Shown: positions 478-30,524, numbered from the stretch's first letter. The stretch: 32,030 bases of DNA from a virus (IMGVR_UViG_2778261510_000008); one strand, 5' to 3'. The notes: a model not told the origin generated them from the letters alone. A program made the numbers and translations.

Positions 478-504
478 AAAAAATAAGCCCGTGTAAGGGA
501 GATT
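478..504. repeat. attL core: 27-bp direct repeat aaaaaataagcccgtgtaagggagatt shared with attR
   Basis: Identical 27-mer at 478..504 and 30498..30524 bracketing the phage gene set; matches the recalled P2 att core. Confidence 0.85.
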
Positions 505-583
505 TAGGGTGTCACCAGTAGGGGCTTTCAACGGTACAATGCGGGTTTGAGCGGCATAAATTACCACTGAAAGCCCTTAAACG

Positions 584-1597
584 TTACTCTACTGTGGACA
601 CTATGTGGACACTCTCGGCCTCAGTACCACCTCTTAGCGGATTAAGAGAAATGGCGTCCTGAAGGTACTCTGGCGCAAAATGAGCGTAAACCATAGTTTG
701 CTCAATCCGCGTGTGACCTAGTATCCGTTGTAGCGTGATAATACTTCCTCCATTAATCATGAAATGAGTGGCAAAGCTGTGCCTTAGTGCATGTGTGGCT
801 TGCCCCATTGGCAAATCCGGTTTTATTGCTTTCATTGTTCGTCTGAAGCGAGGGTAATCAGCATCAGGGAATAAAAAACCTCGTTTGTTATCCGCGATCA
901 TTTTGGCAACAGCCTCTGAGATCGGGACGGTGCGTGGTTTGTTTGTTTTCGTTTTAACAAACGTGACGCGGTTATGGATGATATTTTCTGCTTTCAAACG
1001 AGCTGCTTCTCCCCAACGTGCTCCAGTACTCAGGCAAAGAATCGCAATCTTTTTGTTGTCGCCGTCAAGAGCAGCAAGCAGTAAGGCAATTTCTTCCTGC
1101 GTGAGATAGCCTGTGTCTGGTTTTTCCTCCTTAAGCCTTTTTGTCCCTCTGATAGGGTGCTCACCAAAGAATAACTCCGCTTCAATCAGGGCTGTAAACA
1201 TGCCGCTAATACATGTTAAATCACGATTGATACTCGAAGGTTTAATACCCTGACTTCTTCGGGTGGCGCAGTACTGGCTGATAAGCGATTTCGTAATTTG
1301 AAATGCGCATGGGTCATTCGTTATTTTTGTGAAGATTTCAATTTTTCCAAGATTAGATTTCCCATGCTCTTCGTGTTTACCCTTTAAATCCCACCAGATC
1401 TGTGTCAGCTCCGACAGACGTCGCTTGTCTGTTGGTTTTGATAGCCATTCTTTATTGTGGTGGTTGTACAACGTGTATTTCTCGAAAGCGACAGCTTCGC
1501 TTTTCTTATCAAACTTCCTACGGATGCGTTTTCCATTACGTCCAGTAGGGCGGATGTCCACTTCATATCGACCATCATCGAGTTTTTTGATTGCCAT
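584..1597 (-). CDS. int: Tyrosine integrase, P2 Int-like
   Basis: 337-aa ORF next to att core; C-terminal H-x-x-R...Y catalytic region (HALRHSFATH ... TMVYAHF); SD ggaggg upstream of ATG. Confidence 0.9.
   Translation of the reverse strand: MAIKKLDDGRYEVDIRPTGRNGKRIRRKFDKKSEAVAFEKYTLYNHHNKEWLSKPTDKRRLSELTQIWWDLKGKHEEHGKSNLGKIEIFTKITNDPCAFQITKSLISQYCATRRSQGIKPSSINRDLTCISGMFTALIEAELFFGEHPIRGTKRLKEEKPDTGYLTQEEIALLLAALDGDNKKIAILCLSTGARWGEAARLKAENIIHNRVTFVKTKTNKPRTVPISEAVAKMIADNKRGFLFPDADYPRFRRTMKAIKPDLPMGQATHALRHSFATHFMINGGSIITLQRILGHTRIEQTMVYAHFAPEYLQDAISLNPLRGGTEAESVHIVSTVE
593..612. promoter_or_regulatory. Tandem direct repeats TGTGGACAC (593..601 and 604..612), candidate Int arm-type binding sites in the P' arm
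   Basis: Two perfect 9-mers with 11-bp period, inside the 3' end of int and ~90 bp from the att core; related TGTGG(T/A)C pair at 30449..30467 on the other arm. Confidence 0.5.
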
Positions 1598-1712
1598 CAG
1601 AAAACCCTCCGAGTGGTATGTTTTTTTGCGACTACTAATCGCTTTTTTCGTGGTGGCTGAAATTTAGCCACCAATAGTAGGCACTTGTGATGAATATATT
1701 CACGATGAATTG

Positions 1713-2012
1713 TTAACCAGTCTTTTGACCGGAGTGGGGCGACGTTGTTTCGTTTTGCCCAAAGTGTGCGAGAGCGGGCGCAATTTGCCCGGACTCAGGA
1801 GCGATCTGATTGGTCATGAACCATAAAGTGTATTTGGTGAATTGTGGGGTCTGCAGGATGTTCATCATGACATCTGTTGGAGGTGTTGAACGACCACTTT
1901 CATAGTAACTCAGCGTGCCATACGGAACCCCTGTTAAATCAGCAAGTTGTTGTCTGCTCAAATACTCTGATTTTCGCATTAAGACTATCTTCTCGCTTAT
2001 CGTGTTTGACAT
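1713..2012 (-). CDS. C: Immunity repressor, P2 C-like
   Basis: 99-aa ORF with HTH segment (LSRQQLADLTGVPYGTLSYYE), divergent from cox, same size and position as P2 C. Confidence 0.85.
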   Translation of the reverse strand: MSNTISEKIVLMRKSEYLSRQQLADLTGVPYGTLSYYESGRSTPPTDVMMNILQTPQFTKYTLWFMTNQIAPESGQIAPALAHFGQNETTSPHSGQKTG

Positions 2013-2112
2013 GGTGTTTAGATCTCAATAGTATTTAGTTTAGATGTAGATTGTTTAGTGCTTGGATGTGGGCACTAAAAGGCATTATAAGACATTAAAC
2101 GCAATTCATGAG
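2006..2112. promoter_or_regulatory. Lysogeny/lysis switch: candidate Pe (-35 TTGACA 2006..2011, -10 TAGTAT 2029..2034, + strand), operator direct repeats GTTTAGAT (2016..2023, 2038..2045; third GTTTAG at 2053), candidate Pc -10 TATAAT on - strand (2084..2089)
   Basis: Hexamers with 17-bp spacing; operator half-sites as direct repeats flanking the Pe -10, the arrangement known for P2 C repressor; face-to-face promoters give overlapping transcripts. Confidence 0.6.
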
Positions 2113-2126
2113 GGCTAGAGGACGAC

Positions 2127-2402
2127 ATGAGCAAGCAAGTAACACTCATGACTGATGCGATTCCTTATCAGGAGTTCGCAAAACTAATAGGAAAATCGAC
2201 AGGAGCGGTTCGTCGGATGATTGATAAAGGAAAGCTGCCTGTAATTGATATGACCGATCCACAATCAGCTTCAGGTCGTGCAGGTGAATATTGGGTATAC
2301 CTTCCGGCATGGAATAACGGACTAAAACTGGCTTATGAAAGCCGCCCTAAAGAGATTCGTGACGGCTGGTTGATGTGGTTAGGTCTCGGTGAACCACGTT
2401 AA
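2127..2402 (+). CDS. cox: Cox-like excisionase / Pc repressor
   Basis: 91-aa ORF, first gene of the early operon, divergent from C; size and position as P2 Cox. Confidence 0.8.
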   Translation: MSKQVTLMTDAIPYQEFAKLIGKSTGAVRRMIDKGKLPVIDMTDPQSASGRAGEYWVYLPAWNNGLKLAYESRPKEIRDGWLMWLGLGEPR

Positions 2403-2412: not shown

Positions 2413-2583
2413 ATGAATGAGCCTCGTTGTATTGCTCAGTTACTGCGTAACGAAAGCCCCAGGGCGATTGACTTCACCATCACCCACGGTAAGGGGCGTA
2501 AGGGAATCATTATCCGCACCAAAAAACAGAGTCCGTTAAAAAAGGCTCTGACCTTTCTGAAAAGCCGGAGGGTATGGAAATGA
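2413..2583 (+). CDS. Small early-operon hypothetical protein (P2 orf78 position)
   Basis: ORF 2389..2583; ATG at 2413 preceded by AAGGAG at good spacing; basic small protein. Confidence 0.45.
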   Translation: MNEPRCIAQLLRNESPRAIDFTITHGKGRKGIIIRTKKQSPLKKALTFLKSRRVWK

Positions 2584-3080
2584 CAGTGATGACGCTCAAT
2601 CTCGTTGAAAAACAGCCAGCAGCTATGCGCCGGATAATTGGTAAGCATCTTGCCGTTCCTCGCTGGCAGGATACATGTGATTATTATAATCAGATGATGG
2701 AGCGCGAACGGTTAACGGTTTGCTTTCATGCGCAGTTAAAACAGCGTCACGCAACGATGCGTTTTGAAGAAATGAACGACATCGAACGTGAACGGCTGGT
2801 TTGTGCAATTGATGAATTGCGTGGGGCATTCTCAAAACGCCGTCAGGTTGGCGCAAGTGAGTATGCATATATTAGTTTTTTAACAGTCAGTCAGCGTCGT
2901 ACTTTATTTATGCATGCCGGATTGACTGAAAAAGAATTCAACCAGCCATACTGGCGAATTAATGAAGAATCATGTTACTGGCGTGATGCTTTATTCCGTG
3001 CATTACGTGAATTATTCAGTCTGTTTGAGTATGCACCGACAATTCTGACGTCGGTAAAACCAGAGCAATATCTGCATTAA
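2580..3080 (+). CDS. B: Replication protein B-like (helicase-loader role in P2)
   Basis: 166-aa ORF between cox and A; size, position and recalled N-terminus MTVMTLNLVEKQ as P2 B. Confidence 0.75.
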   Translation: MTVMTLNLVEKQPAAMRRIIGKHLAVPRWQDTCDYYNQMMERERLTVCFHAQLKQRHATMRFEEMNDIERERLVCAIDELRGAFSKRRQVGASEYAYISFLTVSQRRTLFMHAGLTEKEFNQPYWRINEESCYWRDALFRALRELFSLFEYAPTILTSVKPEQYLH

Positions 3081-3143
3081 GTAATTAACCAGAGTTTTTA
3101 ACGCACTTAATTGTGCGGGGCTTCTTTTTGCCTGGAGAAAGTC

Positions 3144-3368
3144 ATGCATACAGTTTCTGAAAATCAGTGCGGTAAATACGCATTACTGCTGCAACAGGCC
3201 AGAACCGAAGCACAGGCCGACGCAGCGACGCGCTTTTCTTCTCATCTTGACGCCATGATTCGCCACATCACAAAGGCGGAGTTATCCCGCGTGGAGATAG
3301 TCGAGCTGCTCAGTCAGGAGTCGGAAAAATTTCACAATATCGGATTGTCTCGCGGGGAGGTGCTTTGA
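3144..3368 (+). CDS. Small early hypothetical protein (P2 orf80 position); start ambiguous (3111 or 3144)
   Basis: ORF 3111..3368; ATG at 3144 has GGAG upstream. Confidence 0.45.
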
Positions 3369-3670
3369 TGTCCTGTTCTCGTTCAGTTGTATTACTGAAT
3401 AACGCCTTAAAAATCGCCGTTATGAAAAATGGCGATTTATCTCTTATTCAACTTGGTCTTGATAAAGAAAAACGCGAAATAACTGAGTCTGTTATCGCGA
3501 TTTATCAGAACGAATTAAATCTCCTGTCTGATGTGGTCAATTTACTTGTTAAACGCGCTGTATTTCACAAGCAAATCTCCTCCGTGGACGAACTGACGAA
3601 ATTAACGACAGAAATTGCCAGCTATTGCGCTGATGAATTTAAAAAACTTAACGACAAAAGGAGCTGGTAA
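3368..3670 (+). CDS. Small early hypothetical protein (P2 orf81 position)
   Basis: ORF overlapping neighbours by a few nt (coupled early operon); ATG at 3368 after ggggagg. Confidence 0.5.
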   Translation: MSCSRSVVLLNNALKIAVMKNGDLSLIQLGLDKEKREITESVIAIYQNELNLLSDVVNLLVKRAVFHKQISSVDELTKLTTEIASYCADEFKKLNDKRSW

Positions 3671-3894
3671 TGCCGGACAACGTAGATTTTATTCAGGAAC
3701 AACAGGCTGAATTACTGGAGCGCCAGATTAACGCGGCAAGGGTAAAGCATTGCGGTGTTTCTGCGCTGGTTTGCGAAGAGTGTGACGCGCCAATACCTGC
3801 TGCCCGTCGTGCGGCTTATCCGTCAGCCACGCGTTGTGTTTCCTGCCAGTCAGTCTTTGAAGCAAAAAACAAACATTACCGGAGAACGGCATGA
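3670..3894 (+). CDS. DksA/TraR-family C4 zinc-finger protein (P2 orf82 position)
   Basis: 74 aa with C-x-x-C ... C-x-x-C (CEECDAP ... CVSCQ) at the C-terminus, typical of TraR/DksA zinc fingers. Confidence 0.6.
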   Translation: MPDNVDFIQEQQAELLERQINAARVKHCGVSALVCEECDAPIPAARRAAYPSATRCVSCQSVFEAKNKHYRRTA

Positions 3895-4166
3895 GTATTC
3901 GTATTGAAATTGGCGAACGTTATGTCGTTACCAGTGACAGCTTTCAGTTTATTCTCCACGAGAAAAAGAGAGCGGAAAGCGGTAAAAACGCCGGTCAGGA
4001 ATGGCTGGCGGTGGTTGGTTATTACCCGAAATTAAGCCAGCTCGTTTCCGGCCTGATGCATCACGATATTCTGACCGGAAGCGCAAAGTCTTTTGCTGAT
4101 TTAAACGCGCAGGTTGAGCAACTCAGCAAGCGTTGTTCAGAGGCTTTTGGCTCATATGGCCGTTAA
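3891..4166 (+). CDS. Small early hypothetical protein (P2 orf83 position)
   Basis: 91-aa ORF immediately upstream of and overlapping A. Confidence 0.5.
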   Translation: MSIRIEIGERYVVTSDSFQFILHEKKRAESGKNAGQEWLAVVGYYPKLSQLVSGLMHHDILTGSAKSFADLNAQVEQLSKRCSEAFGSYGR

Positions 4167-6420
4167 AGCCTCCGGGCGTTTTGTCCCTCCGTCAGCATTT
4201 GCCGCAGGCACCGGTAAGACGTTTACCGGTGCTTATGCATGGAACGCGCCACGCGAGGCTGTCGGGCGCGAAAGACCCCTTACACGTGACGAGATGCGTC
4301 AGGTGCAAGGTGTTTTATCCACGATTAATCGCCTGCCTTACTTTTTGCGCTCGCTGTTTACTTCACGCTATGACTACATCCGGCGCAATAAAAGCCCGGT
4401 GCACGGGTTTTATTTCCTCACATCCACTTTTCAGCGTCGTTTATGGCCGCGCATTGAGCGCGTTAATCAGCGCCATGAAATGAACACCGACGCGTCGTTG
4501 CTGTTTCTGGCAGAGCGTGACCACTATGCGCGCCTGCCTGGAATGAATGACAAGGAGCTGAAAAAGTTTGCCGCCCGTATCTCATCGCAGCTTTTCATAA
4601 TGTATGAGGAACTCTGCGATGCCTGGGTGGATGCGCATGGCGAGAAAGAATCGCTGTTTACGGATGAGGCGCAGGCTCACCTGTATGGTCATGTTGCTGG
4701 CGCTGCACGTGCTTTCAATATTTCCCCGCTCTACTGGAAAAAATACCGTAAAGGGCAGATGACCACGAGGCAGGCATATTCTGCCATTGCCCGTCTGTTT
4801 AACGATGAATGGTGGACTCATCAGCTTAAAGGCCAGCGTATGCGCTGGCATGAGGCGTTACTGATTGCTGTCGGGGAGGTCAATAAAGACCGTTCTCCTT
4901 ATGCCAGTAAACATGCCATTCGTGATGTGCGTGCGCGCCGCCAGGCAAATCTGGAATTTCTTAAATCGTGTGACCTTGAAAACAGGGAAACCGGCGAGCG
5001 CATCGACCTTATCAGTAAGGTGATGGGCAGTATTTCTAATCCAGAAATTCGCCGGATGGAGCTGATGAACACCATCGCCGGTATTGAGCGTTACGCTGCC
5101 GCAGAGGGTGATGTGGGGATGTTTATCACGCTGACCGCGCCGTCAAAGTATCACCCAACACGTCAGGTCAGAAAAGGCGAAAGCAAAACCGTCCAGCTAA
5201 ATCACGGCTGGAATGATGAGGCATTTAATCCAAAGGATGCGCAGCGTTATCTCTGCCGTATCTGGAGCCTGATGCGCACGGCATTCAAGGATAATGATTT
5301 ACAGGCCTACGGTTTGCGTGTTGTTGAACCACACCACGACGGAACGCCGCACTGGCATATGATGCTTTTTTGTAATCCACGCCAGCGTAACCAGATTATT
5401 GAAATCATGCGTCGCTATGCGCTCAAAGAGGATGGCGACGAAAGAGGAGCCGCGAGAAACCGTTTTCAGGCAAAACACCTTAACCGGGGCGGTGCTGCGG
5501 GATATATCGCGAAATACATCTCAAAAAACATCGACGGCTATGCACTGGATGGTCAGCTCGATAATGATACCGGTAGGCCGCTGAAAGACACAGCTGCGGC
5601 TGTTACCGCATGGGCGTCAACGTGGCGCATTCCGCAATTTAAAACGGTTGGTCTGCCGACAATGGGGGCTTACCGTGAACTACGCAAATTGCCTCGTGGC
5701 GTCAGCATTGCTGATGAGTTTGACGAGCGCGTCGAGGCTGCACGCGCCGCTGCAGACAGTGGTGATTTTGCGTTGTATATCAGCGCGCAGGGCGGGGCAA
5801 ATGTCCCGCGCGATTGTCAGACTGTCAGGGTCGCCCGTAGCCCGTCGGATGACGTTAACGAGTACGAGGAAGAAGTCGAGAGAGTGGTCGGCATTTACGC
5901 GCCGCATCTCGGCGCGCGTCATATTCATATCACCAGAACGACGGACTGGCGCATTGTTCCGAAAGTGCCGGTCGTTGAGCCTTTGACTTTAAAAAGCGGC
6001 ATCGCCGCGCCTCGGAGTCCTGTCAATAACTGTGGAAAGCTCACCGGTGGTGATCCTTCGTTACCGGCTCCCACACCTTCTGAGCACGCCGCAGCAGTGC
6101 TAAATCTGGTTGATGACGGTGTTATCGAATGGAATGACCCGGAGGTCGTGAGGACGCTCAGGGGCGCATTAAAACACGGGCTGAGAACGCCAAGTCATCA
6201 GCAAAGAAACGGAAGCCCATTAAAACCGCATGAAATAGCGCCATCGGCCAGACTGACCCGGTCGGAACGAATGCAAATTACCCGTATCCGCGTTGACCTT
6301 GCTCAGAACGGTATCAGGCCTCAGCGATGGGAGCTTGAGGCGCTGGCGCGTGGCGCGACCGTAAATTACGACGGGAAAAAATTTAGGTATTTTATAGTTA
6401 ATGAGTGGCCTATTTTCTAG
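4156..6420 (+). CDS. A: Replication initiation protein A (rolling-circle nickase), P2 gpA-like
   Basis: ~754-aa ORF; ATG at 4156 (MAVKASGRF...) inside the longer TTG-initiated ORF 4114..6420; size and position as P2 A. Confidence 0.9.
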   Translation: MAVKASGRFVPPSAFAAGTGKTFTGAYAWNAPREAVGRERPLTRDEMRQVQGVLSTINRLPYFLRSLFTSRYDYIRRNKSPVHGFYFLTSTFQRRLWPRIERVNQRHEMNTDASLLFLAERDHYARLPGMNDKELKKFAARISSQLFIMYEELCDAWVDAHGEKESLFTDEAQAHLYGHVAGAARAFNISPLYWKKYRKGQMTTRQAYSAIARLFNDEWWTHQLKGQRMRWHEALLIAVGEVNKDRSPYASKHAIRDVRARRQANLEFLKSCDLENRETGERIDLISKVMGSISNPEIRRMELMNTIAGIERYAAAEGDVGMFITLTAPSKYHPTRQVRKGESKTVQLNHGWNDEAFNPKDAQRYLCRIWSLMRTAFKDNDLQAYGLRVVEPHHDGTPHWHMMLFCNPRQRNQIIEIMRRYALKEDGDERGAARNRFQAKHLNRGGAAGYIAKYISKNIDGYALDGQLDNDTGRPLKDTAAAVTAWASTWRIPQFKTVGLPTMGAYRELRKLPRGVSIADEFDERVEAARAAADSGDFALYISAQGGANVPRDCQTVRVARSPSDDVNEYEEEVERVVGIYAPHLGARHIHITRTTDWRIVPKVPVVEPLTLKSGIAAPRSPVNNCGKLTGGDPSLPAPTPSEHAAAVLNLVDDGVIEWNDPEVVRTLRGALKHGLRTPSHQQRNGSPLKPHEIAPSARLTRSERMQITRIRVDLAQNGIRPQRWELEALARGATVNYDGKKFRYFIVNEWPIF

Positions 6421-8571: not shown

Positions 8572-8590
8572 GGGCGAGGCGGGGAAAGCA
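8572..8590. other. cos site: 19-nt sequence GGCGAGGCGGGGAAAGCAC matching the recalled P2 cohesive end
   Basis: Exact 19-mer located just past Q, where P2 cos lies; surrounded by GC/GT-rich non-coding DNA. Confidence 0.7.
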
Positions 8591-8733
8591 CTGCGCGCTG
8601 GCGGTGGTGCTGATTTTATTTTTTTAGCGTCTCAGCGCGTCGTGATGGCGTTTAGATTGTGCGCCGGGGCGTTAGTGTGTCTGCGGGGTGTTTTGTGCGG
8701 TGGTGAGCGTGTGAGGGCGTGATGACGGGGTGT

Positions 8734-13727: not shown

Positions 13728-13730
13728 CCG

Positions 13731-15286: not shown

Positions 15287-15289
15287 CGC

Positions 15290-18643: not shown

Positions 18644-18987
18644 CAGCGCGTTATCTCGGAATGAATCGCAGTGATGGCCTGACGGTCACTGACCTCGAGC
18701 ATATCAGCCAGAGTATCGGCGATATCCTGCGCACACCAGTCGGCTCACGGGTGATGCGTCGTGATTACGGCTCGTTGCTGGCGTCAATGATTGACCAGCC
18801 GCAGACCCCGGCGCTTGAGTTGCAGATTAAGGTCGCCTGTTACATGGCGGTGCTGAAATGGGAACCCCGCGTCACCCTGTCATCCGTCACCACTGAGCGC
18901 AGTTTTGACGGGCGAATGACGGTCACGTTAACCGGCCAGCACAACGACACCGGCCAGCCACTTTCGTTAACCATCCCTGTGAGTTGA
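18640..18987 (+). CDS. W: Baseplate wedge protein, P2 gpW-like
   Basis: 115-aa ORF, order and size. Confidence 0.85.
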   Translation: MTARYLGMNRSDGLTVTDLEHISQSIGDILRTPVGSRVMRRDYGSLLASMIDQPQTPALELQIKVACYMAVLKWEPRVTLSSVTTERSFDGRMTVTLTGQHNDTGQPLSLTIPVS

Positions 18988-18991
18988 AACC

Positions 18992-21784: not shown

Positions 21785-22377
21785 TGAAACCTGTTTTTGA
21801 TGAAAATGGGCTGGCTACAGTGCCGGGCGATATGCGTTGTTTTTATTATGATGCTGAAACATCTGAGTATACGGGCTGGTCTGATGAATATATTAATAAT
21901 GGCGTAAGTATGCCCGCCTGTTCCACTGGTATTGACCCGGGCGAAAACATTCCGGGGAAAGTGGCAGTATTTACGGGTAAGGGATGGAGCCATGAAGAAG
22001 ACCATCGCAATGAGACTGTTTACTCAACAGAAAATGGCGCAGCTGTTACAGTGGATTATATCGGTGCCATCAAAAACGGTTATGTCACGCTTTCACCGTT
22101 AACGACATATGATAAATGGGATGGTGAGAAATGGGTGACAGATACTGAGGCACAGCATAACGCCGCAGTAGAAGCAGCAGAAGCACAGCGCCAGTCACTG
22201 ATTGATGCAGCAATGGCTTCCATTAGTCTGATTCAGCTGAAATTACAGGCCGGACGGAAACTGACTCAGGCAGAAACAACCCGACTTAACGCCGTGCTGG
22301 ATTACATTGACGCGGTGACGGCAACAGATACCAGCACCGCGCCGGATGTCATCTGGCCTGAACTGCCGGAGGCGTAG
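21784..22377 (+). CDS. Tail fibre assembly chaperone (gpG/U-like), current orientation
   Basis: 197-aa ORF right after H; C-terminal TSTAPD-x-x-WP motif shared with the convergent ORF. Confidence 0.75.
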
Positions 22378-22777
22378 GCCATTCAATATCGGGTGCTGTT
22401 GAAGTATCAACACGCATCAGCAGCACACGGTATTTCTTCCATTCGGTGAGAGTTGAAGTTTCTTCATCAGTTGCGATATCAGCATCAACAGCATCCTGAC
22501 GCCAGGATATTTCACTGTCAGCTTTTTCCCGTAATTGGGATTTTTTAACTTCAGCAATAGCTATTAATTCCTTTTTGGTCGGCTGAGGAATATCTATCAG
22601 TGCTGGTTTTCCATTCAGTGTTCCAATCTGTTTTCCTGGTGGAATATCCATAAATAACTTTTTATGTTCTTCCTCACTGACTATTACACCATCATCAGGC
22701 CACAGACCTGATGCCTCAAATTTTTCTTTCTCCGATATGGGGAAAAAGCCATTTGCTTTAGCGCTCCATACGTACAT
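22349..22777 (-). CDS. Alternative tail fibre assembly chaperone (U'-like), convergent
   Basis: 142-aa ORF ending in [15 protein letters not shown], like the + strand chaperone; sits inside the invertible segment. Confidence 0.7.
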
Positions 22778-22778
22778 A

Positions 22779-23086
22779 TCAATACCCCACCGCTATAATG
22801 TCCACATTAAATCCCCCGGGACCTGCCTGCCAGATGCTGGCCCCTGTTAATGATTTTGTTTGATGAACAACCGCCACATTTGCTGGCGATAGTGTTTCAG
22901 TTGTTACAGTACCGATATCATTCCAGTTAATTGAGATGGAATAGTTCGTTGTTGTAAACGACCGGGGGAAAGTTATGTGTCTTGCATTGGTGCCAACAGG
23001 AAATCCAAGATAAACACGCTGAATTATCATTCCTCCAGGTAACATAACCCAGTTAGCACCTTCTCCAAAACCAACGTTTATGAAAA
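22779..23086 (-). CDS. Silent alternative tail fibre C-terminal cassette (Sv'-like); expressed only after inversion fuses it to the H constant part
   Basis: Reading frame open from the right crossover site; encodes [14 protein letters not shown]... whose first residues parallel GLGEGA in H; no own start or promoter. Confidence 0.6.
23061..23086. repeat. Right recombination site (gix/cix/hix-like 26 bp)
   Basis: ttctccaaaaccaacgtttatgaaaa; its reverse complement ttttcataaacgttggttttggagaa aligns with 21315..21340. Confidence 0.65.
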
Positions 23087-23140: not shown

Positions 23141-23734
23141 ATGCTTATTGGCTATGTACGCGTGTCAACAAATGACCAGAACACGGAATTGCAGCGTAAC
23201 GCGCTGGAGTGCGCGGGATGTGAGCGGATTTTTGAGGACAAAATCAGCGGCACGAAGTCCGACAGGCCGGGACTGAAAAAACTGCTCAGGACATTATCGG
23301 AGGGGGATACACTGGTAGTCTGGAAGCTGGACCGGCTGGGGCGTAGTATGCGGCATCTGGTCATTCTGGTTGAGGAGTTGCGCGAACGCGGCATTAATTT
23401 TCGCAGCCTGACGGATGCTATTGATACCAGCACGCCGATGGGGCGTTTTTTCTTTCATGTGATGGGTGCCCTGGCTGAAATGGAACGAGAACTCATTGTC
23501 GAGCGGACTCGGGCCGGGCTGGAAGCGGCCAGAGCCAAAGGTCGTATTGGTGGCAGACGACCGAAACTCACCGCGAGTGAGTGGGAGCAGGCCGGGCGTT
23601 TGCTGGCTGCAGGGGAGTCACGTCAACGCGTGGCACTGATTTTTGATATTGGTCTGTCCACGCTCTATAAAAAATTTCCCTCATCAGCGACAAAGAATAA
23701 ATTGTGTCATCCCTTAGCCAACCGGGACAAATAG
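23141..23734 (+). CDS. Serine DNA invertase, Gin/Cin/Hin/Pin family
   Basis: 197 aa from ATG at 23141; N-terminal catalytic motif GYVRVSTNDQ, resolvase fold residues, C-terminal HTH; next to the inverted-repeat sites. Confidence 0.85.
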   Translation: MLIGYVRVSTNDQNTELQRNALECAGCERIFEDKISGTKSDRPGLKKLLRTLSEGDTLVVWKLDRLGRSMRHLVILVEELRERGINFRSLTDAIDTSTPMGRFFFHVMGALAEMERELIVERTRAGLEAARAKGRIGGRRPKLTASEWEQAGRLLAAGESRQRVALIFDIGLSTLYKKFPSSATKNKLCHPLANRDK

Positions 23735-23793: not shown

Positions 23794-24984
23794 ATGAGTG
23801 ACTATCATCACGGCGTGCAGGTGCTGGAGATTAACGACGGCACCCGCGTCATTTCCACCGTATCCACCGCCATTGTCGGCATGGTCTGCACGGCCAGCGA
23901 TGCGGATGCGGAAATCTTCCCCCTCAATAAACCGGTGCTGATTACCAATGTGCAGAGCGCAATTGCAAAGGCCGGTAAAAAAGGCACGCTGGCGGCGTCG
24001 TTGCAGGCCATCGCTGACCAGTCAAAACCGGTCACCGTAGTCGTGCGTGTGGAAGACGGCACCGGCGACGACGAAGAAACGAAACTCGCGCAGACTGTTT
24101 CCAATATCATCGGTACCACCGACGAAAACGGTCAGTACACCGGACTGAAAGCCCTGCTGGCGGCGGAGTCGGTAACCGGTGTTAAACCGCGTATTCTCGG
24201 TGTGCCGGGACTGGACACCAAAGAGGTGGCTGTTGCACTGGCATCAGTCTGTCAGAAGCTGCGCGCTTTCGGGTATATCAGCGCATGGGGCTGTAAAACC
24301 ATTTCCGAGGTGAAAGCCTACCGCCAGAATTTCAGCCAGCGTGAGCTGATGGTCATCTGGCCGGATTTCCTCGCATGGGATACGGTCACCAGTACCACCT
24401 CCACCGCGTATGCCACCGCCCGTGCGCTGGGTCTGCGCGCTAAAATCGACCAGGAGCAGGGCTGGCATAAAACGCTGTCCAACGTCGGGGTGAACGGTGT
24501 TACCGGCATCAGCGCATCTGTATTCTGGGATTTGCAGGAGTCCGGCACCGATGCTGACCTGCTGAACGAGGCAGGCGTCACAACGCTGATTCGCCGCGAC
24601 GGTTTCCGCTTCTGGGGTAACCGTACCTGCTCTGATGACCCGCTGTTCCTCTTTGAAAACTACACCCGCACCGCGCAGGTGCTGGCCGACACGATGGCTG
24701 AGGCGCACATGTGGGCGGTGGACAAGCCCATCACCGCAACGCTGATTCGCGACATCGTTGACGGCATCAATGCCAAATTCCGTGAGCTGAAAACAAATGG
24801 CTATATCGTGGATGCGACCTGCTGGTTCAGCGAAGAATCCAACGATGCGGAAACCCTCAAGGCCGGAAAACTGTATATCGACTACGACTATACCCCGGTG
24901 CCTCCTCTTGAAAACCTGACCCTGCGCCAGCGTATTACCGATAAATACCTGGCGAATCTGGTCACCTCGGTTAACAGCAATTAA
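23794..24984 (+). CDS. FI: Tail sheath protein, P2 gpFI-like
   Basis: 396-aa ORF, size and order. Confidence 0.9.
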   Translation: MSDYHHGVQVLEINDGTRVISTVSTAIVGMVCTASDADAEIFPLNKPVLITNVQSAIAKAGKKGTLAASLQAIADQSKPVTVVVRVEDGTGDDEETKLAQTVSNIIGTTDENGQYTGLKALLAAESVTGVKPRILGVPGLDTKEVAVALASVCQKLRAFGYISAWGCKTISEVKAYRQNFSQRELMVIWPDFLAWDTVTSTTSTAYATARALGLRAKIDQEQGWHKTLSNVGVNGVTGISASVFWDLQESGTDADLLNEAGVTTLIRRDGFRFWGNRTCSDDPLFLFENYTRTAQVLADTMAEAHMWAVDKPITATLIRDIVDGINAKFRELKTNGYIVDATCWFSEESNDAETLKAGKLYIDYDYTPVPPLENLTLRQRITDKYLANLVTSVNSN

Positions 24985-24996
24985 GGAGCCTGACCG

Positions 24997-25515
24997 ATGG
25001 CAATGCCGCGCAAACTCAAGTTAATGAACGTCTTTCTGAACGGCTACAGCTATCAGGGCGTTGCAAAGTCCGTCACGCTGCCAAAACTGACCCGTAAGCT
25101 CGAAAACTATCGCGGTGCGGGGATGAACGGCAGCGCACCGGTAGACCTCGGCCTTGATGACGATGCGCTGTCAATGGAGTGGTCGCTCGGGGGCTTCCCG
25201 GATTCGGTTATCTGGGAGCTTTACGCCGCAACCGGTGTGGATGCCGTGCCGATTCGTTTTGCAGGCTCTTACCAGCGCGACGATACCGGCGAAACGGTGG
25301 CCGTCGAAGTGGTCATGCGTGGACGTCAGAAAGAAATCGACACCGGCGAGGGTAAACAGGGAGAAGACACTGAGTCGAAAATCTCCGTGGTCTGCACCTA
25401 TTTCCGGCTGACGATGGACGGTAAGGAGCTGGTCGAAATCGACACCATCAACATGATTGAGAAGGTGAACGGCGTCGACCGGCTGGAGCAACACCGCCGC
25501 AATATCGGCCTGTGA
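24997..25515 (+). CDS. FII: Tail tube protein, P2 gpFII-like
   Basis: 172-aa ORF following sheath. Confidence 0.9.
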   Translation: MAMPRKLKLMNVFLNGYSYQGVAKSVTLPKLTRKLENYRGAGMNGSAPVDLGLDDDALSMEWSLGGFPDSVIWELYAATGVDAVPIRFAGSYQRDDTGETVAVEVVMRGRQKEIDTGEGKQGEDTESKISVVCTYFRLTMDGKELVEIDTINMIEKVNGVDRLEQHRRNIGL

Positions 25516-25571
25516 TTTTCATCCGGTCAGCCAGGCTGACCGGTTAACCCTGATTCAGAAGTGAGAAAACC

Positions 25572-25999
25572 ATGAACAAAGAAAATGTCATTACCCTGGA
25601 CAATCCGGTCAAGCGTGGTGAGCAGGTCATCGAACAGGTCACGCTGATGAAACCCAGTGCCGGGACGCTGCGCGGTGTCAGTCTGGCTGCGGTCGCAAAC
25701 TCCGAAGTTGATGCACTAATTAAGGTGTTGCCGCGCATGACGGCACCGATGCTGACCGAGCAGGAAGTTGCCGCACTGGAACTGCCTGACCTTGTGGCGC
25801 TGGCCGGTAAGGTGGTCGGTTTTTTGTCGCCGAACTCGGTGCAGTAACGTTCCCGAAAAATCTCTCGGTCGATGACCTGATGGCGGATGTGGCAGTGATA
25901 TTTCACTGGCCGCCATCAGAACTGTATCCCATGAGCCTGACCGAACTCATCACATGGCGCGAAAAGGCGCTCCGGCGAAGCGGAAACACGAATGAGTAA
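25572..25999 (+). CDS. E: Tail assembly chaperone E (25572..25847) and its -1 frameshift product E+E' (slip at TTTTTTG 25820..25826, ending 25999)
   Basis: 91-aa E ORF; the -1 frame is open from the T6G heptamer to a TAA at 25997..25999, overlapping the start of T; the same arrangement as P2 E/E'. Confidence 0.8.
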
Positions 26000-28439
26000 C
26001 AATGTAAAATTACAGGTATTGCTCAGGGCTGTTGACCAGGCATCCCGCCCGTTTAAATCCATCCGCACAGCGAGCAAATCGCTGTCGGGGGATATCCGGG
26101 AAACACAAAAATCACTGCGCGAGCTGAACGGTCAGGCATCCCGTATTGAGGGATTTCGCAAGACCAGTGCACAGCTCGCCGTGACTGGTCATGCACTTGA
26201 AAAGGCACGGCAGGAGGCCGAAGCCCTTGCCACGCAGTTTAAAAATACCGAACGTCCGACCCGTGCTCAGGCGAAAGTGCTGGAATCCGCAAAGCGTGCG
26301 GCGGAGGACTTACAGGCGAAATATAACCGCCTGACAGATTCCGTTAAACGCCAGCAGCGGGAACTGGCCGCTGTGGGAATTAATACCCGCAATCTTGCAC
26401 ATGATGAGCAGGGACTGAAAAACCGTATCAGTGAAACCACCGCACAGCTTAACCGGCAGCGTGACGCGCTGGCGCGTGTCAGTGCGCAACAGGCAAAACT
26501 TAATGCAGTAAAACAGCGTTATCAGGCCGGAAAGGAACTGGCCGGAAATATGGCCTCAGTGGGCGCTGCCGGTGTGGGGATTGCTGCTGCGGGAACGATG
26601 GCTGGAGTTAAGTTGCTGATGCCCGGTTATGAGTTTGCGCAGAAAAACTCAGAATTGCAGGCCGTGCTCGGTGTGGCAAAAGACTCCGCCGAAATGACCG
26701 CACTCCGCAAACAGGCGCGCCAGCTCGGCGACAATACCGCAGCCTCGGCAGATGATGCAGCCGGTGCGCAGATTATTATTGCGAAAGCCGGTGGGGATGT
26801 TGATGCCATTCAGGCGGCAACGCCGGTCACGCTGAATATGGCGCTGGCGAACCGTCGCACGATGGAAGAAAACGCCGCCCTGCTGATGGGGATGAAATCC
26901 GCCTTTCAGCTTTCAAACGATAAGGTCGCTCATATCGGGGATGTTCTCTCCATGACGATGAACAAAACCGCCGCCGATTTTGATGGCATGAGCGATGCGC
27001 TGACCTATGCCGCACCTGTGGCAAAAAATGCTGGTGTCAGCATTGAAGAAACCGCCGCAATGGTCGGGGCGCTGCATGATGCAAAAATTACCGGTTCAAT
27101 GGCGGGGACGGGAAGCCGTGCCGTGTTAAGCCGCCTGCAGGCACCGACGGGAAAAGCATGGGATGCACTGAAAGAGCTTGGCGTGAAAACCTCAGACAGT
27201 AAGGGAAACACCCGACCAGTATTTACCATTCTGAAAGAAATGCAGGCCAGCTTTGAGAAAAACCGGCTCGGTACTGCCCAGCAGGCTGAATACATGAAAA
27301 CCATTTTCGGGGAGGAGGCCAGTTCAGCCGCCGCCGTGCTGATGACTGCCGCCTCAACCGGAAAGCTGGACAAACTGACCGCTGCGTTTAAAGCCTCAGA
27401 CGGAAAGACCGCAGAGCTGGTAAATATCATGCAGGACAACCTCGGCGGTGACTTTAAGGAGTTTCAGTCCGCTTATGAGGCGGTGGGGACTGACCTGTTT
27501 GACCAGCAGGAAGGCGCACTGCGTAAGCTCACGCAGACGGCCACAAAGTATGTGTTAAAACTCGACGGCTGGATCCAGAAAAACAAATCACTGGCGTCAA
27601 CCATCGGCCTTATTGTCGGTGGTGCACTGGCGCTTACTGGCATCATCGGTGCAATTGGTCTTGTAGCCTGGCCGGTTATCACCGGCATTAATGCCATCAT
27701 CGCGGCAGCAGGCGCAATGGGGGCAGTCTTCACGACGGTTGGCAGTGCTGTTATGACCGCCATCGGGGCGATTAGCTGGCCGGTTGTGGCCGTGGTGGCC
27801 ACCATTGTCGCCGGGGCGTTGCTTATCCGTAAATACTGGGAGCCTGTCAGCGCATTCTTTGGCGGTGTGGTTGAAGGGCTGAAAGCAGCATTTGCGCCAG
27901 TGGGGGAACTGTTCACGCCACTTAAGCCGGTGTTTGACTGGCTGGGTGAAAAGTTACAGGCCGCGTGGCAGTGGTTTAAAAACCTGATTGCCCCGGTCAA
28001 AGCTACCCAGGACACCCTGAACCGTTGCCGTGACACGGGCGTCATGTTCGGGCAGGCACTGGCTGACGCGCTGATGCTGCCGCTTAATGCGTTCAACAAA
28101 CTGCGCAGTGGTATTGACTGGGTACTGGAAAAACTCGGTGTTATCAACAAAGAGTCAGACACACTTGACCAGACCGCCGCCAGAACTCAAGCCGCCACGT
28201 ATGGCAGCGGTGGTTATATTCCGGCGACCAGCTCTTATGCAGGTTATCAGGCTTATCAGCCGGTCACGGCACCGGCTGGCCGCTCTTATGTGGACCAGAG
28301 TAAAAACGAATATCACATCAGCCTGACGGGTGGTACTGCACCGGGGACACAGCTTGACCGCCAGTTACAGGATGCGCTCGAAAAATACGAGCGGGATAAA
28401 CGTGCGCGCGCCCGTGCCAGCATGATGCATGACGGTTAA
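25992..28439 (+). CDS. T: Tail tape measure protein, P2 gpT-like
   Basis: 815-aa ORF, coiled-coil N-terminal half, glycine/alanine-rich hydrophobic central segment. Confidence 0.9.
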   Translation: MSNNVKLQVLLRAVDQASRPFKSIRTASKSLSGDIRETQKSLRELNGQASRIEGFRKTSAQLAVTGHALEKARQEAEALATQFKNTERPTRAQAKVLESAKRAAEDLQAKYNRLTDSVKRQQRELAAVGINTRNLAHDEQGLKNRISETTAQLNRQRDALARVSAQQAKLNAVKQRYQAGKELAGNMASVGAAGVGIAAAGTMAGVKLLMPGYEFAQKNSELQAVLGVAKDSAEMTALRKQARQLGDNTAASADDAAGAQIIIAKAGGDVDAIQAATPVTLNMALANRRTMEENAALLMGMKSAFQLSNDKVAHIGDVLSMTMNKTAADFDGMSDALTYAAPVAKNAGVSIEETAAMVGALHDAKITGSMAGTGSRAVLSRLQAPTGKAWDALKELGVKTSDSKGNTRPVFTILKEMQASFEKNRLGTAQQAEYMKTIFGEEASSAAAVLMTAASTGKLDKLTAAFKASDGKTAELVNIMQDNLGGDFKEFQSAYEAVGTDLFDQQEGALRKLTQTATKYVLKLDGWIQKNKSLASTIGLIVGGALALTGIIGAIGLVAWPVITGINAIIAAAGAMGAVFTTVGSAVMTAIGAISWPVVAVVATIVAGALLIRKYWEPVSAFFGGVVEGLKAAFAPVGELFTPLKPVFDWLGEKLQAAWQWFKNLIAPVKATQDTLNRCRDTGVMFGQALADALMLPLNAFNKLRSGIDWVLEKLGVINKESDTLDQTAARTQAATYGSGGYIPATSSYAGYQAYQPVTAPAGRSYVDQSKNEYHISLTGGTAPGTQLDRQLQDALEKYERDKRARARASMMHDG

Positions 28440-28453
28440 GGAGGTGACGAAAA

Positions 28454-28933
28454 ATGATGCTCGCGTTAGGTATGTTTGTTTTTATGCGCCAGACGCTGCC
28501 ACACCAGACCATGCAGCGTGAATCAGATTATCGCTGGCCGTCAAATTCCCGTATCGGTAAACGGGATGCCTACCAGTTTCTCGGCGTTGGTGAGGAAAAC
28601 ATGACGCTTGCCGGTGTGCTTTATCCCGAACTGACCGGCGGCAAGCTGACGATGACCACGCTCAGACTGATGGCAGAGGAAGGCCGGGCGTGGCCGTTGC
28701 TGGATGGCACAGGCATGATTTACGGCATGTATGTCATCAGCAAGGTGAGTGAAACAGGGAGTATTTTCTTTGCAGACGGCACACCCCGGAAAATTGATTT
28801 TACGCTGTCGCTCACCCGCGTTGATGAATCACTGGCCGCGCTTTATGGCGATATCGGTAAACAGGCGGAGTCGCTCATCGGTAAGGCCGGCAGTATGGCG
28901 ACCAGATTCACAGGTATGACGGGGGCGGGATAA
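28454..28933 (+). CDS. U: Tail protein, P2 gpU-like
   Basis: 159-aa ORF, order and size. Confidence 0.85.
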   Translation: MMLALGMFVFMRQTLPHQTMQRESDYRWPSNSRIGKRDAYQFLGVGEENMTLAGVLYPELTGGKLTMTTLRLMAEEGRAWPLLDGTGMIYGMYVISKVSETGSIFFADGTPRKIDFTLSLTRVDESLAALYGDIGKQAESLIGKAGSMATRFTGMTGAG

Positions 28934-30096
28934 TGCTGGATGCGCTGACATTTGATGCAGGCAGCACGCTGACGCCGGATTACATGCTGATGCTCGACAG
29001 CAGGGATATTACCGGCAATATCAGCGACCGTCTGATGAGTATGACCCTGACGGATAACCGGGGCTTTGAGGCTGACCAGCTTGATATTGAACTGAACGAT
29101 GCCGACGGGCAGGTCGGGCTGCCGGTTCGTGGCGCTGTCCTGACGGTGTATATCGGCTGGAAAGGTTTTGCCCTGGTATGCAAAGGGAAATTTACCGTTG
29201 ATGAGGTTGAACACCGGGGCGCGCCGGATGTGGTCACCATCCGCGCCCGGAGTGCAGATTTTCGCGGGACGCTCAATTCCCGCCGGGAAGGCTCCTGGCA
29301 TGACACCACACTCGGTGCGATTGTTGAGGCGATAGCCTCCCGTAACAAGCTGGAGGCCAGTGTCGCTCCGTCACTGGCCGGAATAAAAATTCCACACATC
29401 GACCAGTCGCAGGAGTCTGATGCGAAATTCCTGACCCGTCTTGCTGAACGCAACGGCGGTGAGGTGTCGGTAAAAATGGGAAAACTGTTGTTTCTTAAGG
29501 CGGGGCAGGGGGTGACGGCCAGCGGTAAAAAAATCCCGCAGATTACCATCACCCGCAGCGACGGCGACCGTCATCATTTTGCGATTGCTGACCGTGGAGC
29601 TTACACCGGCGTAACGGCAAAGTGGTTACACACCAAAGACCCGAAGCCGCAAAAGCAGAAGGTAAAACTGAAACGCAAAAAGAAAGAAAAACACCTGCGC
29701 GCACTGGAGCACCCGAAAGCGAAACCGGTCACGCAGAAGAAAGCGCCAAAAGTACCGGAAGCGCGCGAAGGTGAATACATGGCCGGTGAAGCTGACAACG
29801 TTTTTGCCCTGACTACGGTATATGCCACGAAAGCACAGGCCATGCGCGCCGCTCAGGCGAAGTGGGATAAACTGCAACGGGGCGTTGCGGAGTTCTCCAT
29901 CAGCCTTGCCACTGGTCGTGCTGATATTTACACGGAAACACCGGTCAGAGTGTCAGGCTTTAAGCGCGTCATAGACGAGCAGGACTGGACAATCACTAAG
30001 GTGACACATTTTCTGAATAATAGCGGCTTCACGACGTCCTTAGAGCTTGAGGTCAGGCTTTCTGATGTGGAGTACGAAACAGAAGATGATGAGTGA
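28933..30096 (+). CDS. D: Late tail protein, P2 gpD-like
   Basis: 387-aa ORF, order and size. Confidence 0.85.
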   Translation: MLDALTFDAGSTLTPDYMLMLDSRDITGNISDRLMSMTLTDNRGFEADQLDIELNDADGQVGLPVRGAVLTVYIGWKGFALVCKGKFTVDEVEHRGAPDVVTIRARSADFRGTLNSRREGSWHDTTLGAIVEAIASRNKLEASVAPSLAGIKIPHIDQSQESDAKFLTRLAERNGGEVSVKMGKLLFLKAGQGVTASGKKIPQITITRSDGDRHHFAIADRGAYTGVTAKWLHTKDPKPQKQKVKLKRKKKEKHLRALEHPKAKPVTQKKAPKVPEAREGEYMAGEADNVFALTTVYATKAQAMRAAQAKWDKLQRGVAEFSISLATGRADIYTETPVRVSGFKRVIDEQDWTITKVTHFLNNSGFTTSLELEVRLSDVEYETEDDE

Positions 30097-30177
30097 TGTT
30101 TTTATTTTATCTGTTTGTTTTATAAGGATAAATTAACTAAAATGGCACCATCAACAAAACCGGAAGAGGTGCTCGCG

Positions 30178-30396
30178 ATGTTTCATTGTCCTTTATGCCA
30201 GCATGCCGCACATGCGCGTACAAGCCGCTATATCACTGACACGACAAAAGAGCGTTATCACCAGTGTCAGAACGTGAATTGCAGCGCCACGTTCATCACT
30301 TATGAGTCGGTACAGCGATACATCGTGAAGCCGGGAGAAGTCCACGCCGTAAGACCGCACCCGTTGCCGTCAGGGCAGCAAATTATGTGGATGTAA
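30178..30396 (+). CDS. ogr: Late gene transcription activator Ogr (zinc finger)
   Basis: 72 aa from ATG at 30178 (MFHCPLCQH...); cysteine pairs CPLC and CQNVNC; last phage gene before attR. Confidence 0.85.
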   Translation: MFHCPLCQHAAHARTSRYITDTTKERYHQCQNVNCSATFITYESVQRYIVKPGEVHAVRPHPLPSGQQIMWM

Positions 30397-30417
30397 TTAC
30401 AAACAGGAAGCCCCTCA

Positions 30418-30443
30418 GTCGAGGGGCTTTTTTGTCGATGTGG
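30418..30443 (+). terminator. Rho-independent terminator after ogr
   Basis: aagcccctc-agtc-gaggggctt hairpin followed by a T-run. Confidence 0.75.
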
Positions 30444-30497
30444 TCAATGTGTGGACGTGACCAGAAATAAATCCTTTTATTTCATTGTATTACGCGT

Positions 30498-30524
30498 AAA
30501 AAATAAGCCCGTGTAAGGGAGATT
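30498..30524. repeat. attR core, 27-bp direct repeat of attL
   Basis: Identical to 478..504; overlaps the 3' terminator end of cyaR. Confidence 0.85.

Follow-up and report, generated by a model that had tools for sequence, protein, structure and literature searches.

The preferred chromosomal site of phage P2 in E. coli is locI, a 27-bp attB at the 3' end of cyaR. Phages were already known to target this gene, ryeE/cyaR (PMC3603311); in MG1655 it is followed by the 'cryptic prophage PR-X' and ogrK. The gpA–gpQ slot, next to cos, is a published defence hotspot with variable cargo (PMC9122126). P2 at cyaR/locI, the K-12 remnant, the cos-side defence hotspot and invertase-switched fibres are all already documented. 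We analysed a stretch of 32,030 nt, referred to as the window, and compared it with these systems. Judged from its sequence, the segment 478–30524 is very probably (roughly 0.92) a complete P2 prophage (genus Peduovirus) with P2 immunity, located at the preferred attB in the terminator end of cyaR.

Attachment cores and the cyaR junction

The 27-bp sequence AAAAAATAAGCCCGTGTAAGGGAGATT was present as an exact direct repeat at 478–504 and 30498–30524, confirming the att core duplication reported in the first-pass annotation; these were the only two copies in the window. Their spacing, 30,020 bp, is also the length of the prophage. The repeat matched the annotated attP core of P2 (P2 24356–24382) at 27 of 27 positions. 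The two ends contain the following features.

1..318, plus strand: yegR, host-side flank, a lipoprotein-like ORF of 105 aa, annotated as yegR in matching genomes
478..504: attL core, 27 bp, the same as the P2 attP core
505..620: P' arm with the Cox-binding region and Int arm sites, TGTGGACA repeats at 592–611; colinear with P2 24383–24496
30405..30497: ogr/F-operon terminator, P-arm Int sites (30435–30462) and IHF site; colinear with P2 24265–24357
30498..30524: attR core, doubling as the 3' terminus of cyaR with its loop, 3' stem half and U-tract, as judged by the core repeat and Rfam
30501..30586, minus strand: cyaR (RyeE) sRNA gene, Rfam RF00112, 100.7 bits, E 3.1e-19
30669..32030, minus strand: yegQ (trhP), host flank, from the flank annotation

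An attP rebuilt from both junctions showed 6 mismatches in 211 nt relative to P2, and its TGTGG arm repeats were free of mismatches except for one A/G change. The same comparison indicated that the sites used in excision (arm-type Int sites, IHF site and Cox boxes) were all there.

The element lies between yegR and cyaR/yegQ. Comparison with an empty cyaR–yegR locus, suggested in the first-pass annotation, defined attB: the sequence of strain NT1F31 equals window 1–504 followed directly by 30498–32030, that is, both flanks and a single core. Relative to this strain, attL and attR are exact reciprocal attP × attB recombinants, and the occupied and empty sites differ by exactly the element plus one core. 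Among the 5,426 complete E. coli genomes, at least 812, or about 15%, showed the yegR–core–int junction, with the match continuing beyond the core to the P' arm and int, and thus carry an integrase at the cyaR junction. The repeat and its junctions could in principle reflect an assembly artefact or a chance duplication instead of site-specific integration. The probability of this is negligible, and nothing was found in its favour; by our own estimate, an exact 27-mer pair within 32 kb is expected about 3e-8 times by chance, and the occurrence of the junction in 812 independent complete genomes, together with the exact empty-site comparison, effectively refutes it. Considered with established P2 biology, the junctions suggest recombination by Int, with the help of IHF, between the attP core and its identical counterpart in attB. 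The products would be attL, running from the host flank through the core and P' arm to int, and attR, running from ogr through the P arm and core to cyaR.

The Rfam model matched cyaR over its full length (model positions 1–85 of 85), with the score well above the gathering score of 47. The last 24 nt of CyaR come from the right core copy, which holds the terminator loop, the 3' half of the stem and the U-tract. This placement agrees with the earlier claim that the right copy forms the terminator end of CyaR. The accompanying claim that cyaR is rebuilt from phage sequence upon integration holds in principle; however, the sequence is unchanged by integration, because the entire terminator falls within the 27-bp identity segment. 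From the core through the gene, cyaR was the same in NT1F31.

The first-pass annotation also stated that K-12 keeps only an ogr/D remnant at this locus. MG1655 and a K-12-type strain indeed show just D'–ogrK; in the latter, yegR is followed by 18 nt of the attL core joined to a piece of D, then by ogrK, a complete attR core and cyaR. The K-12 remnant (PR-X: yegZ/D' plus ogrK) has the same site and orientation as the prophage, and its attR side (P arm, core, cyaR) is essentially identical to that of the window, including core-adjacent bases that are unlike reference P2. It has lost the sequence from inside the attL core (18 nt kept) to within gene D, whereas the prophage is whole. A clearly degraded prophage copy occupies the same site in strain NMBU-W12E19, and at least 188 complete genomes carry at least 80% of window 1–25000.

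Gene content and variable modules

P2 (NC_001895) is 33.6 kb and the prophage 30.0 kb in length; 30,020 bp is within the range of sequenced P2-type phages (28.9–34.8 kb). The backbone aligned to P2 at 95.1–97.8% nucleotide identity in four colinear blocks covering about 24.4 kb of the 30.0 kb. Together these blocks take in all essential genes, and the P2 gene order is kept. Core, C, Cox, Ogr, operators, ori, cos and the E/E' frameshift are identical to those of P2. The first-pass annotation was thus right in placing a P2-like prophage in the 3' end of cyaR.

We searched the window with 42 P2 proteins by tblastn. All 27 essential genes were open, without stops or gaps, and aligned end to end save gpA, and the retained non-essential P2 genes likewise aligned end to end without stops or gaps. 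The gpA match comprised residues 1–754 of 761; the last 7 residues lie in a variable junction, and the C-terminal end differs from P2. At the amino acid level, C, Cox, Ogr, P, K, Y, X, FII and E were 100% identical to P2, and lysA, lysC and gpI were 93%, 93% and 82% identical. The claimed intactness of the essential genes thus held up in this check, which revealed no frameshifts, stops or gaps. The genes and sites between the two arms are listed below; the immunity switch is described in the next section.

584..1597, minus strand: int, tyrosine integrase, 337 aa, 99.4% to P2 Int
2413..6420, plus strand: early operon (orf78, B, orf80–83, A), full length, 96–100% aa identity
4156–6420, plus strand: A, replication nickase, contains ori; ori nick region the same as in P2
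6541..8466, minus strand: GmrSD-like (DUF262/DUF1524) protein, 641 aa, cargo of the gpA–gpQ hotspot (Pfam, PADLOC)
8573..8591: cos, 19-nt cohesive end GGCGAGGCGGGGAAAGCAC, exact match to P2 cosL/cosR
8761..11567, minus strand: Q (portal) and P (large terminase), 98.5% and 100% aa identity, full length
11741..17941, plus strand: O operon (O, N, M, L, X, Y (holin), K (endolysin), lysA, lysB, lysC, R, S), full length, 93–100% aa identity, no stops
17942..18007, plus strand: compact S–V spacer; the late promoter of the V operon lies here, its TGT-N12-ACC dyad about 57 nt ahead of V; orf30 absent
18008..20504, plus strand: baseplate genes V, W, J and I; I is 203 aa with a variant C-terminus
20501..22377, plus strand: tail fibre H (427 aa) and fibre chaperone G (197 aa), Pfam Phage_tail_fib and Caudo_TAP
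21315..23086: invertible segment with 26-bp hix/gix-like inverted sites at 21315–21340 and 23061–23086; 32-nt arms, 81% complementary
22349..23073, minus strand: silent alternative set, G' (142 aa, 22349–22777) and a promoterless alternative H tip (22779 to about 23073), from Pfam
23141..23734, plus strand: serine DNA invertase of Gin/Cin/Pin/Hin type, 197 aa from MLIGYVRVS, in the P2 fun(Z) slot (Pfam, PHROG)
23794..30096, plus strand: F operon (FI, FII, E, E+E' by −1 frameshift, T, U, D), full length, 98–100% aa identity
30178..30396, plus strand: ogr, late-gene activator, 72 aa, 100% to P2

Regulatory signals followed the same pattern: the slippery site and the E+E' product are the same as in P2, and Ogr-dependent late-promoter dyads, TGT-N12-(A/C)C(A/C), were found at the P/O, V and F promoters. 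About 15–20% of the element differs from the reference P2 sequence through a defence-gene swap, loss of orf30 and an invertible tail-fibre module, and these differences are confined to known variable slots. The GmrSD-like gene stands where P2 has orf91/tin/old. P2 orf30 is absent, and the resulting compact S–V junction is common to 53 phage records, including Wphi, 10W, 11W, HQ103 and pro483. The C-terminus of gpI is a variant relative to P2, and the C-terminus of H, G and fun(Z) of P2 give way to the invertible fibre cassette and its invertase, with functional analogues of H and G in their place according to Pfam.

The cargo protein matched GmrSD_N (4.4e-31, 109 bits) and GmrSD_C (1.5e-7, 31.8 bits), both above the Pfam cut-offs and within one protein; its best PADLOC family was HEC-06 (9.7e-38). 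No NCBIfam name was found for it. Both domains and a DGQQR motif at aa 102 are shared with DUF262–DUF1524 nucleases of the GmrSD/BrxU/SspE type (type IV restriction), although its similarity to solved structures is only weak (9jfl, E 4.9e-10, N-domain). The GC content of the gene is 35%, versus 52% for the whole prophage. These features point to a putative type IV restriction enzyme that may defend the lysogen against phages with modified DNA.

The tail fibre H is constant to about aa 277 and then carries a 150-aa variable tip; only its N-terminal part resembles P2 H. In the silent set, Pfam matched Caudo_TAP (1e-33) and Gp53-like_C (4.3e-6). The invertase gene adjoins the invertible segment, one crossover site of which lies inside the fibre gene, and its product matched Pfam Resolvase (1e-52), a C-terminal HTH_7 (1e-12) and PHROG 125 'DNA invertase' (7.6e-102). 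When the segment was inverted in silico, an in-frame H of 373 aa (277 common aa plus a 96-aa tip) was obtained, followed by G'. The flipped junction occurs naturally, at 100% identity over 500 nt in other genomes; at 80% or more coverage, the flipped form was found in 17 genomes and the orientation of the window in 20 E. coli genomes. Among phage records, coverage of the cassette reaches 67% at most. The Mu G, P1 C and e14 P segments have the same layout of a serine invertase, 26-bp inverted sites in the fibre gene and two tips, each with a chaperone, and the P2-type phages pro483, S164, 'P2' of O157:H43 T22 and 500465-2 also have invertase-controlled fibres; the particular fibre tips of all of these differ from those of the prophage. 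We infer a Gin/Cin-type cassette that would switch two tail-fibre tips with their chaperones and so alternate host range.

At the sequence level, the prophage would have all it needs to replicate (A, B, ori), package its DNA (cos, P, M, Q), build heads and tails, lyse the cell, activate its late genes (ogr with four late promoters) and excise (int, cox). Because of this full complement of genes and sites, it is probably viable. Missense changes in lysA, lysC or gpI, or changes in promoters, could disable it, and a cryptic prophage might then hide behind open ORFs, with infectious particles blocked by a missense mutation, a regulatory defect or a mosaic whose modules are incompatible. The exact module combination occurs in no complete genome or phage record of the collections (best genome match, 94% coverage), which would fit a cryptic state, as would the divergent C-terminal end of gpA and the 82–93% identity of gpI, lysA and lysC to P2. 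The modules taken singly, however, occur elsewhere: the S–V junction is present on its own in other sequenced phage genomes, invertase-type cassettes in pro483, S164 and P2-T22, and variable cargo at gpA–gpQ elsewhere. Moreover, the regulatory sites are conserved, and frameshifts, stops and IS elements are absent, unlike in the degraded NMBU-W12E19 copy. We therefore consider a cryptic state unlikely and a viable P2 prophage the better reading.

Immunity type and response to DNA damage

1713..2402: immunity switch, with the C repressor (1713–2012, minus strand), Pe/Pc with O1 and O2, and cox (2127–2402, plus strand); P2-identical

The 122-nt switch region (Pe/Pc/O1/O2) was identical to that of P2, as were C (99 aa) and Cox (both 100%). 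The immunity type is that of P2 by this sequence identity, and the prophage is predicted to be homoimmune with P2. The P2 C repressor would keep it silent.

The first-pass annotation regarded the prophage as probably inducible, given its intact genes, and proposed mitomycin C induction as a check. Intactness does not imply inducibility here: P2 is on record as not inducible by UV or mitomycin C, and its C repressor is not RecA-cleavable (PMC1904268; PMC2669165). Phage 186 and the 186-type P2 relatives share the virion and late-gene architecture of the prophage but use a CI/Apl/CII switch and a LexA-controlled tum, and mitomycin C induces such tum-bearing relatives, the E. coli HS prophage being one (PMC11195241). 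Some P2-like prophages with non-cleavable repressors, such as Sp13 of O157 Sakai, likewise respond to mitomycin C, by other routes (PMC2669165). These precedents, together with the intact genes, leave some room for an intact prophage induced by DNA damage in the manner of lambda or phage 186. We found no LexA box (CTGT-N8-ACAG) anywhere in the window, and family scans of the variable-slot and small early ORFs detected no 186-type gene, tum or epsilon-like anti-repressor; the extra-gene slots hold the GmrSD-like gene and the invertase. With repressor, Cox and operators of P2 type and not of 186 type, induction by DNA damage is very improbable, and the earlier expectation is not upheld. Mitomycin C or UV should not induce the prophage because the P2 C repressor is not cleaved in the SOS response; non-inducibility is strongly expected. 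Release would be expected only spontaneously at low frequency, or after derepression by the anti-repressor of a P4-type satellite.

The yegR segment and what the locus means

Escherichia sp. E1V33 and 77 of the 114 Enterobacterales species that were informative lack yegR at this locus, and their yegS begins about 100 nt beyond the cyaR terminator. The E. coli yegR segment is inserted exactly at the core end. Its borders are a P-arm relic towards cyaR and, towards yegS, a P'-arm relic together with a degenerate second core (18/27) that lies flush with the ancestral flank. The first relic is in the window.

425..464: relic similar to the Int-binding region in the P arm of P2, lying in the host flank next to attL; 30/40 identity to 30430–30469, with an exact 15-mer

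Its local alignment score was 46, versus 19.1 ± 3.7 for shuffled sequences, and was reached by 2 of 2000 shuffles; the relic is also present in empty-site strains. The yegR family (PF27694) is almost confined to E. coli and Shigella. We lean slightly towards the view that the 'empty' P2 site of E. coli may itself be the attR of a much older, almost wholly decayed P2-type element, whose remains of about 800 bp include yegR. This older-integration reading may be new.

As it stands, the finding provides the correct annotation of the strain. The lysogen would be immune to P2, could serve as a helper for P4-type satellites and probably gains a putative type IV restriction-like defence, and a mitomycin C response is not to be expected of it; a phage released from it would have two alternative host ranges. 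If the older integration is real, the cyaR terminator now used in E. coli would be a copy from the older element, with the original surviving as the decaying copy beside yegS, and P2, the K-12 remnant and the present prophage would be later arrivals at a recycled site. The locus would then illustrate, on a small scale, how phage-borne copies can replace an sRNA terminator and how an attachment site can be reused serially.

Integration at the cyaR terminator and the P2 backbone

The first-pass annotation had described a P2-like prophage inserted in the 3' end of cyaR at 478-30524, and its coordinates and description were borne out by the att repeats and by an Rfam search. A 27-bp sequence, AAAAAATAAGCCCGTGTAAGGGAGATT, was found at the left end of the element, and an exact second copy was found at the right end. 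CyaR/RyeE was the sole Rfam family above threshold in the window; the match spanned the full model and scored 100.7 bits (gathering score, 47).

Features of the integration site
1-318, plus strand: yegR, followed by a 160-nt spacer
478-504: left copy of the core (attL)
30498-30524: right copy of the core (attR)
30501-30586, minus strand: CyaR
30669-32030: yegQ (trhP), after cyaR

Given the position of the CyaR match, the right repeat holds the CyaR loop, the 3' half of the terminator stem and the U-tract. Because the entire terminator including the U-tract lies inside the 27-bp identity, cyaR is identical in the lysogen and the non-lysogen. An empty cyaR-yegR locus, the comparison proposed earlier, was available in the empty-site strain NT1F31, in which the sequence of 1-504 runs directly into that of 30498-32030; this site therefore consists of the left flank, one core and the right flank. 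The phage side of attL corresponded to the P' side of P2 attP and that of attR to the P side, and the reconstituted attP differed from that of P2 at 6 of 211 positions. Such junctions are the signature of Int-mediated recombination between attP and attB. The site at the end of cyaR, locI of P2, is commonly occupied among E. coli genomes: a match that extended beyond the core to the P' arm and int beside yegR was present in 812 of 5,426 complete genomes, and at least 188 of the 5,426 carried at least 80% of window 1-25000. In PMC3603311, ryeE is cited as 'previously known to be targeted by phages'.

The core-to-core interval matched phage P2 and its close relatives with about 97% identity over about 78% of the query. 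Alignment to the P2 reference (NC_001895) gave four colinear blocks of 95.1-97.8% identity, in agreement with the P2-like identity first assigned.

Blocks colinear with P2
478-6410 (P2 24356-30288, 97.8%): attP core, int, C, cox, B, orf78-83 and A
8573-17943 (P2 1-9369, 97.5%): cos, Q, P, O to S
18008-20329 (P2 10308-12629, 95.1%): V, W, J and I
23714-30524 (P2 17572-24382, 97.1%): FI to D, ogr and attP

The essential genes had also been called intact, and a tblastn search with 42 P2 proteins showed each to be full length and free of stops and gaps. Identity to the P2 counterpart was 100% for C, Cox, Ogr, P, K, Y, X, FII and E, and for the -1 frameshift product E+E'; gpA aligned over 754 of 761 residues, because the gene end falls in a variable junction. 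The 19-nt cos was exact (8573-8591), the Pe/Pc/O1/O2 switch region and the ori nick region were identical to those of P2, and the late-promoter dyads were present. The prophage is 30,020 bp long, which falls inside the 28.9-34.8 kb spanned by sequenced P2-type phages. A 63-aa ORF (8531-8722, plus strand) spanning cos matched a PHROG without assigned function (phrog_17350, E 5e-38); since the cohesive-end cut falls within it, it may reflect an annotation habit rather than a gene.

Variable slots and the route to induction

Three differences from reference P2 were identified by sequence comparison, all in known variable slots.

Features of the variable slots
6541-8466, minus strand: GmrSD-like gene (641 aa) replacing P2 orf91/tin/old
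17942-18007: S-V spacer of 65 nt, carrying the V late promoter
21315-23734: invertible tail-fibre cassette
21315-21340 and 23061-23086: 26-bp hix/gix-like sites, in inverted orientation

The 641-aa protein encoded between gpA and cos contained GmrSD_N and GmrSD_C domains (DUF262/DUF1524) and a DGQQR motif, and its best PADLOC family was HEC-06. NCBIfam held no name for it, and a PDB search returned a sole, weak match, to DUF262. Its gene has a GC content of 35% and was found in the same gpA-gpQ slot in 8-9 other genomes among 5,426. The slot has been described as a defence hotspot, in which 18,150 loci showed 1,650 arrangements (PMC9122126). We infer that the cargo is a putative type IV restriction-like defence gene, which would be functionally comparable to tin.

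Reference P2 has orf30, whereas the window lacks both orf30 and the S-operon terminator region. In the S-V spacer, a TGT-N12-ACC dyad is retained 57 nt upstream of V (56 in P2). The same compact junction was found in 53 phage records, including Wphi, 10W, 11W, HQ103 and pro483, so the orf30-less spacer is a normal form and, in sequenced genomes of P2-type phages, the common one.

In place of the C-terminal part of H, G and fun(Z) of reference P2, the window carries the invertible cassette, with an H of 427 aa and a G of 197 aa. The opposite strand encodes another chaperone, of 142 aa, and a fibre tip that lacks a promoter, and a serine invertase gene comes after this alternative fibre set. When the segment was inverted in silico, H stayed in frame, keeping the 277 residues of its N-terminal part and gaining another tip, of 96 residues, and the alternative chaperone came to lie directly after the new tip. 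The predicted flipped junction was found in natural genomes (100% identity over 500 nt), and the window's own orientation was found in 20 other genomes. Such invertases also occur in the sequenced P2-type phages pro483, S164, P2-T22 and 500465-2. The exact module mosaic of the window was present in no complete genome of the collection. The prophage is a well-known phage at a well-known site, and its cargo and fibre modules are likewise of known kinds.

The expectation that the prophage is probably inducible, with mitomycin C as the test, did not hold up. P2-type repressors are uncleaved in the SOS response (PMC1904268; PMC2669165), and the inducible members of the P2 family are 186-type, acting via the LexA-controlled tum gene (PMC11195241). 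In the window, the C protein and its operators were 100% identical to those of P2, no LexA box (CTGT-N8-ACAG) was found anywhere, and no tum-like gene was found in the slots scanned (variable-slot and small early ORFs, with family scans); the 186-type route was therefore dropped. With this combination, mitomycin induction is not expected; release would rather be spontaneous at a low level, or would follow once a P4-type anti-repressor lifted repression. A live phage needs an intact sequence, but intactness is uninformative on inducibility.

Remnant and degraded copies in other strains

K-12 had been said to keep only an ogr/D remnant at this locus, and MG1655 and the K-12-type strain LTE950 both confirmed it. 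In MG1655, cyaR is followed by 'cryptic prophage PR-X' and then ogrK; in LTE950, yegR comes before an attL core cut down to its first 18 nt and joined to a D fragment, after which come ogrK, a full attR and then cyaR.

Left boundary of the K-12 remnant
LTE950 locus (L003), 2978-2995: inside the attL core, joined to an internal gene D fragment

Because the 18 core nucleotides are fused directly to the gene D fragment, the deletion that made the remnant began within attL. Barreiro and Haggard-Ljungquist reportedly described this remnant in 1992.

Strain NMBU-W12E19 carries a heavily degraded P2-type prophage at the same junction and is identical to the window over 1-2117. In its copy, A, Q and tail genes are truncated, ISKpn26 has inserted, and the hotspot is occupied by a SIR2-family gene. 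Positions 1-700 match at 100%, but this degradation led us to reject it as the window prophage. The copy shows a decay stage between the window's intact prophage and the K-12 remnant.

An E. coli-specific insertion, possibly an old scar, between cyaR and yegS

On the host side of attL, 425-464 resembled the P-arm Int-binding region at 30430-30469 (30/40 identity, with an exact 15-mer), and this stretch is also present in empty-site strains. We scanned cyaR in one genome per species (120 loci, 114 informative). In 77 of the 114, yegR is missing and yegS, on the same strand, starts a median of 99 nt past the cyaR terminator; Escherichia sp. E1V33 is among the species without yegR between the two genes. 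E. coli has an insertion of about 800 nt, containing yegR, exactly after the cyaR terminator U-tract.

Second end of the E. coli insertion
Outside the window, left of position 1 (NT1F31 locus, L002, between yegS and yegR): degenerate core and P' relic

The P-arm relic at the cyaR end scored 46 (shuffles 19.1±3.7; reached by 2 of 2000), and the P'-arm relic at the yegS end scored 37 (20.8±4.1; 6 of 2000). The degenerate core, AATCCTCCATACTTGAACTGACTTTTT, is flush with the ancestral flank and shares 18 of 27 positions with the core in an ungapped comparison (fixed-position binomial P, 2.7e-5); only 1 of 1,548 insertion positions reaches 18. A longer decayed cyaR copy beside yegS was also considered and rejected: the gapped whole-cyaR alignment was marginal, with its score reached by 66 of 2000 shuffles, and only the 27-nt core part at the fixed position was significant. 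The arm and core matches suggest, at slightly better than even odds, that the insertion is arranged as attR ... attL around what was once a P2-type element, now almost erased, the 'empty' E. coli site being itself an old scar. Among the papers searched, none described yegR as the scar of a phage.

YegR occurs almost exclusively in E. coli and Shigella. As phage cargo in P2 prophages elsewhere, yegR found no support, the rare distant homologues lying outside prophages; of the two most divergent, one is in an IS-rich region and one in an unrelated chromosomal island. Matches in the phage collection were only host-flank carry-over in E. coli-derived records. Gene content gives no support either way for the scar reading.

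In the other informative loci, yegS was displaced (23 of 114) or was absent within 1.5-7.7 kb (14 of 114).

Loci bearing on the cyaR-yegS gap
L094, L107, L119 and about 35 other species loci

P2-type ogr/D/U/T genes lie directly after cyaR in Citrobacter youngae and Enterobacteriaceae bacterium G50, and the cyaR terminator stem differs between genera by compensatory changes. In Escherichia albertii NBRC 107761 (L110), the terminator is followed by 47 nt of a P2-type P arm, IS-like debris and then an operon that encodes, among others, a CdtB-like protein (cytolethal distending toxin); here another, distinct P2-type relic occupies the cyaR site. The cyaR-yegS gap is a recurrent insertion site across Enterobacterales.
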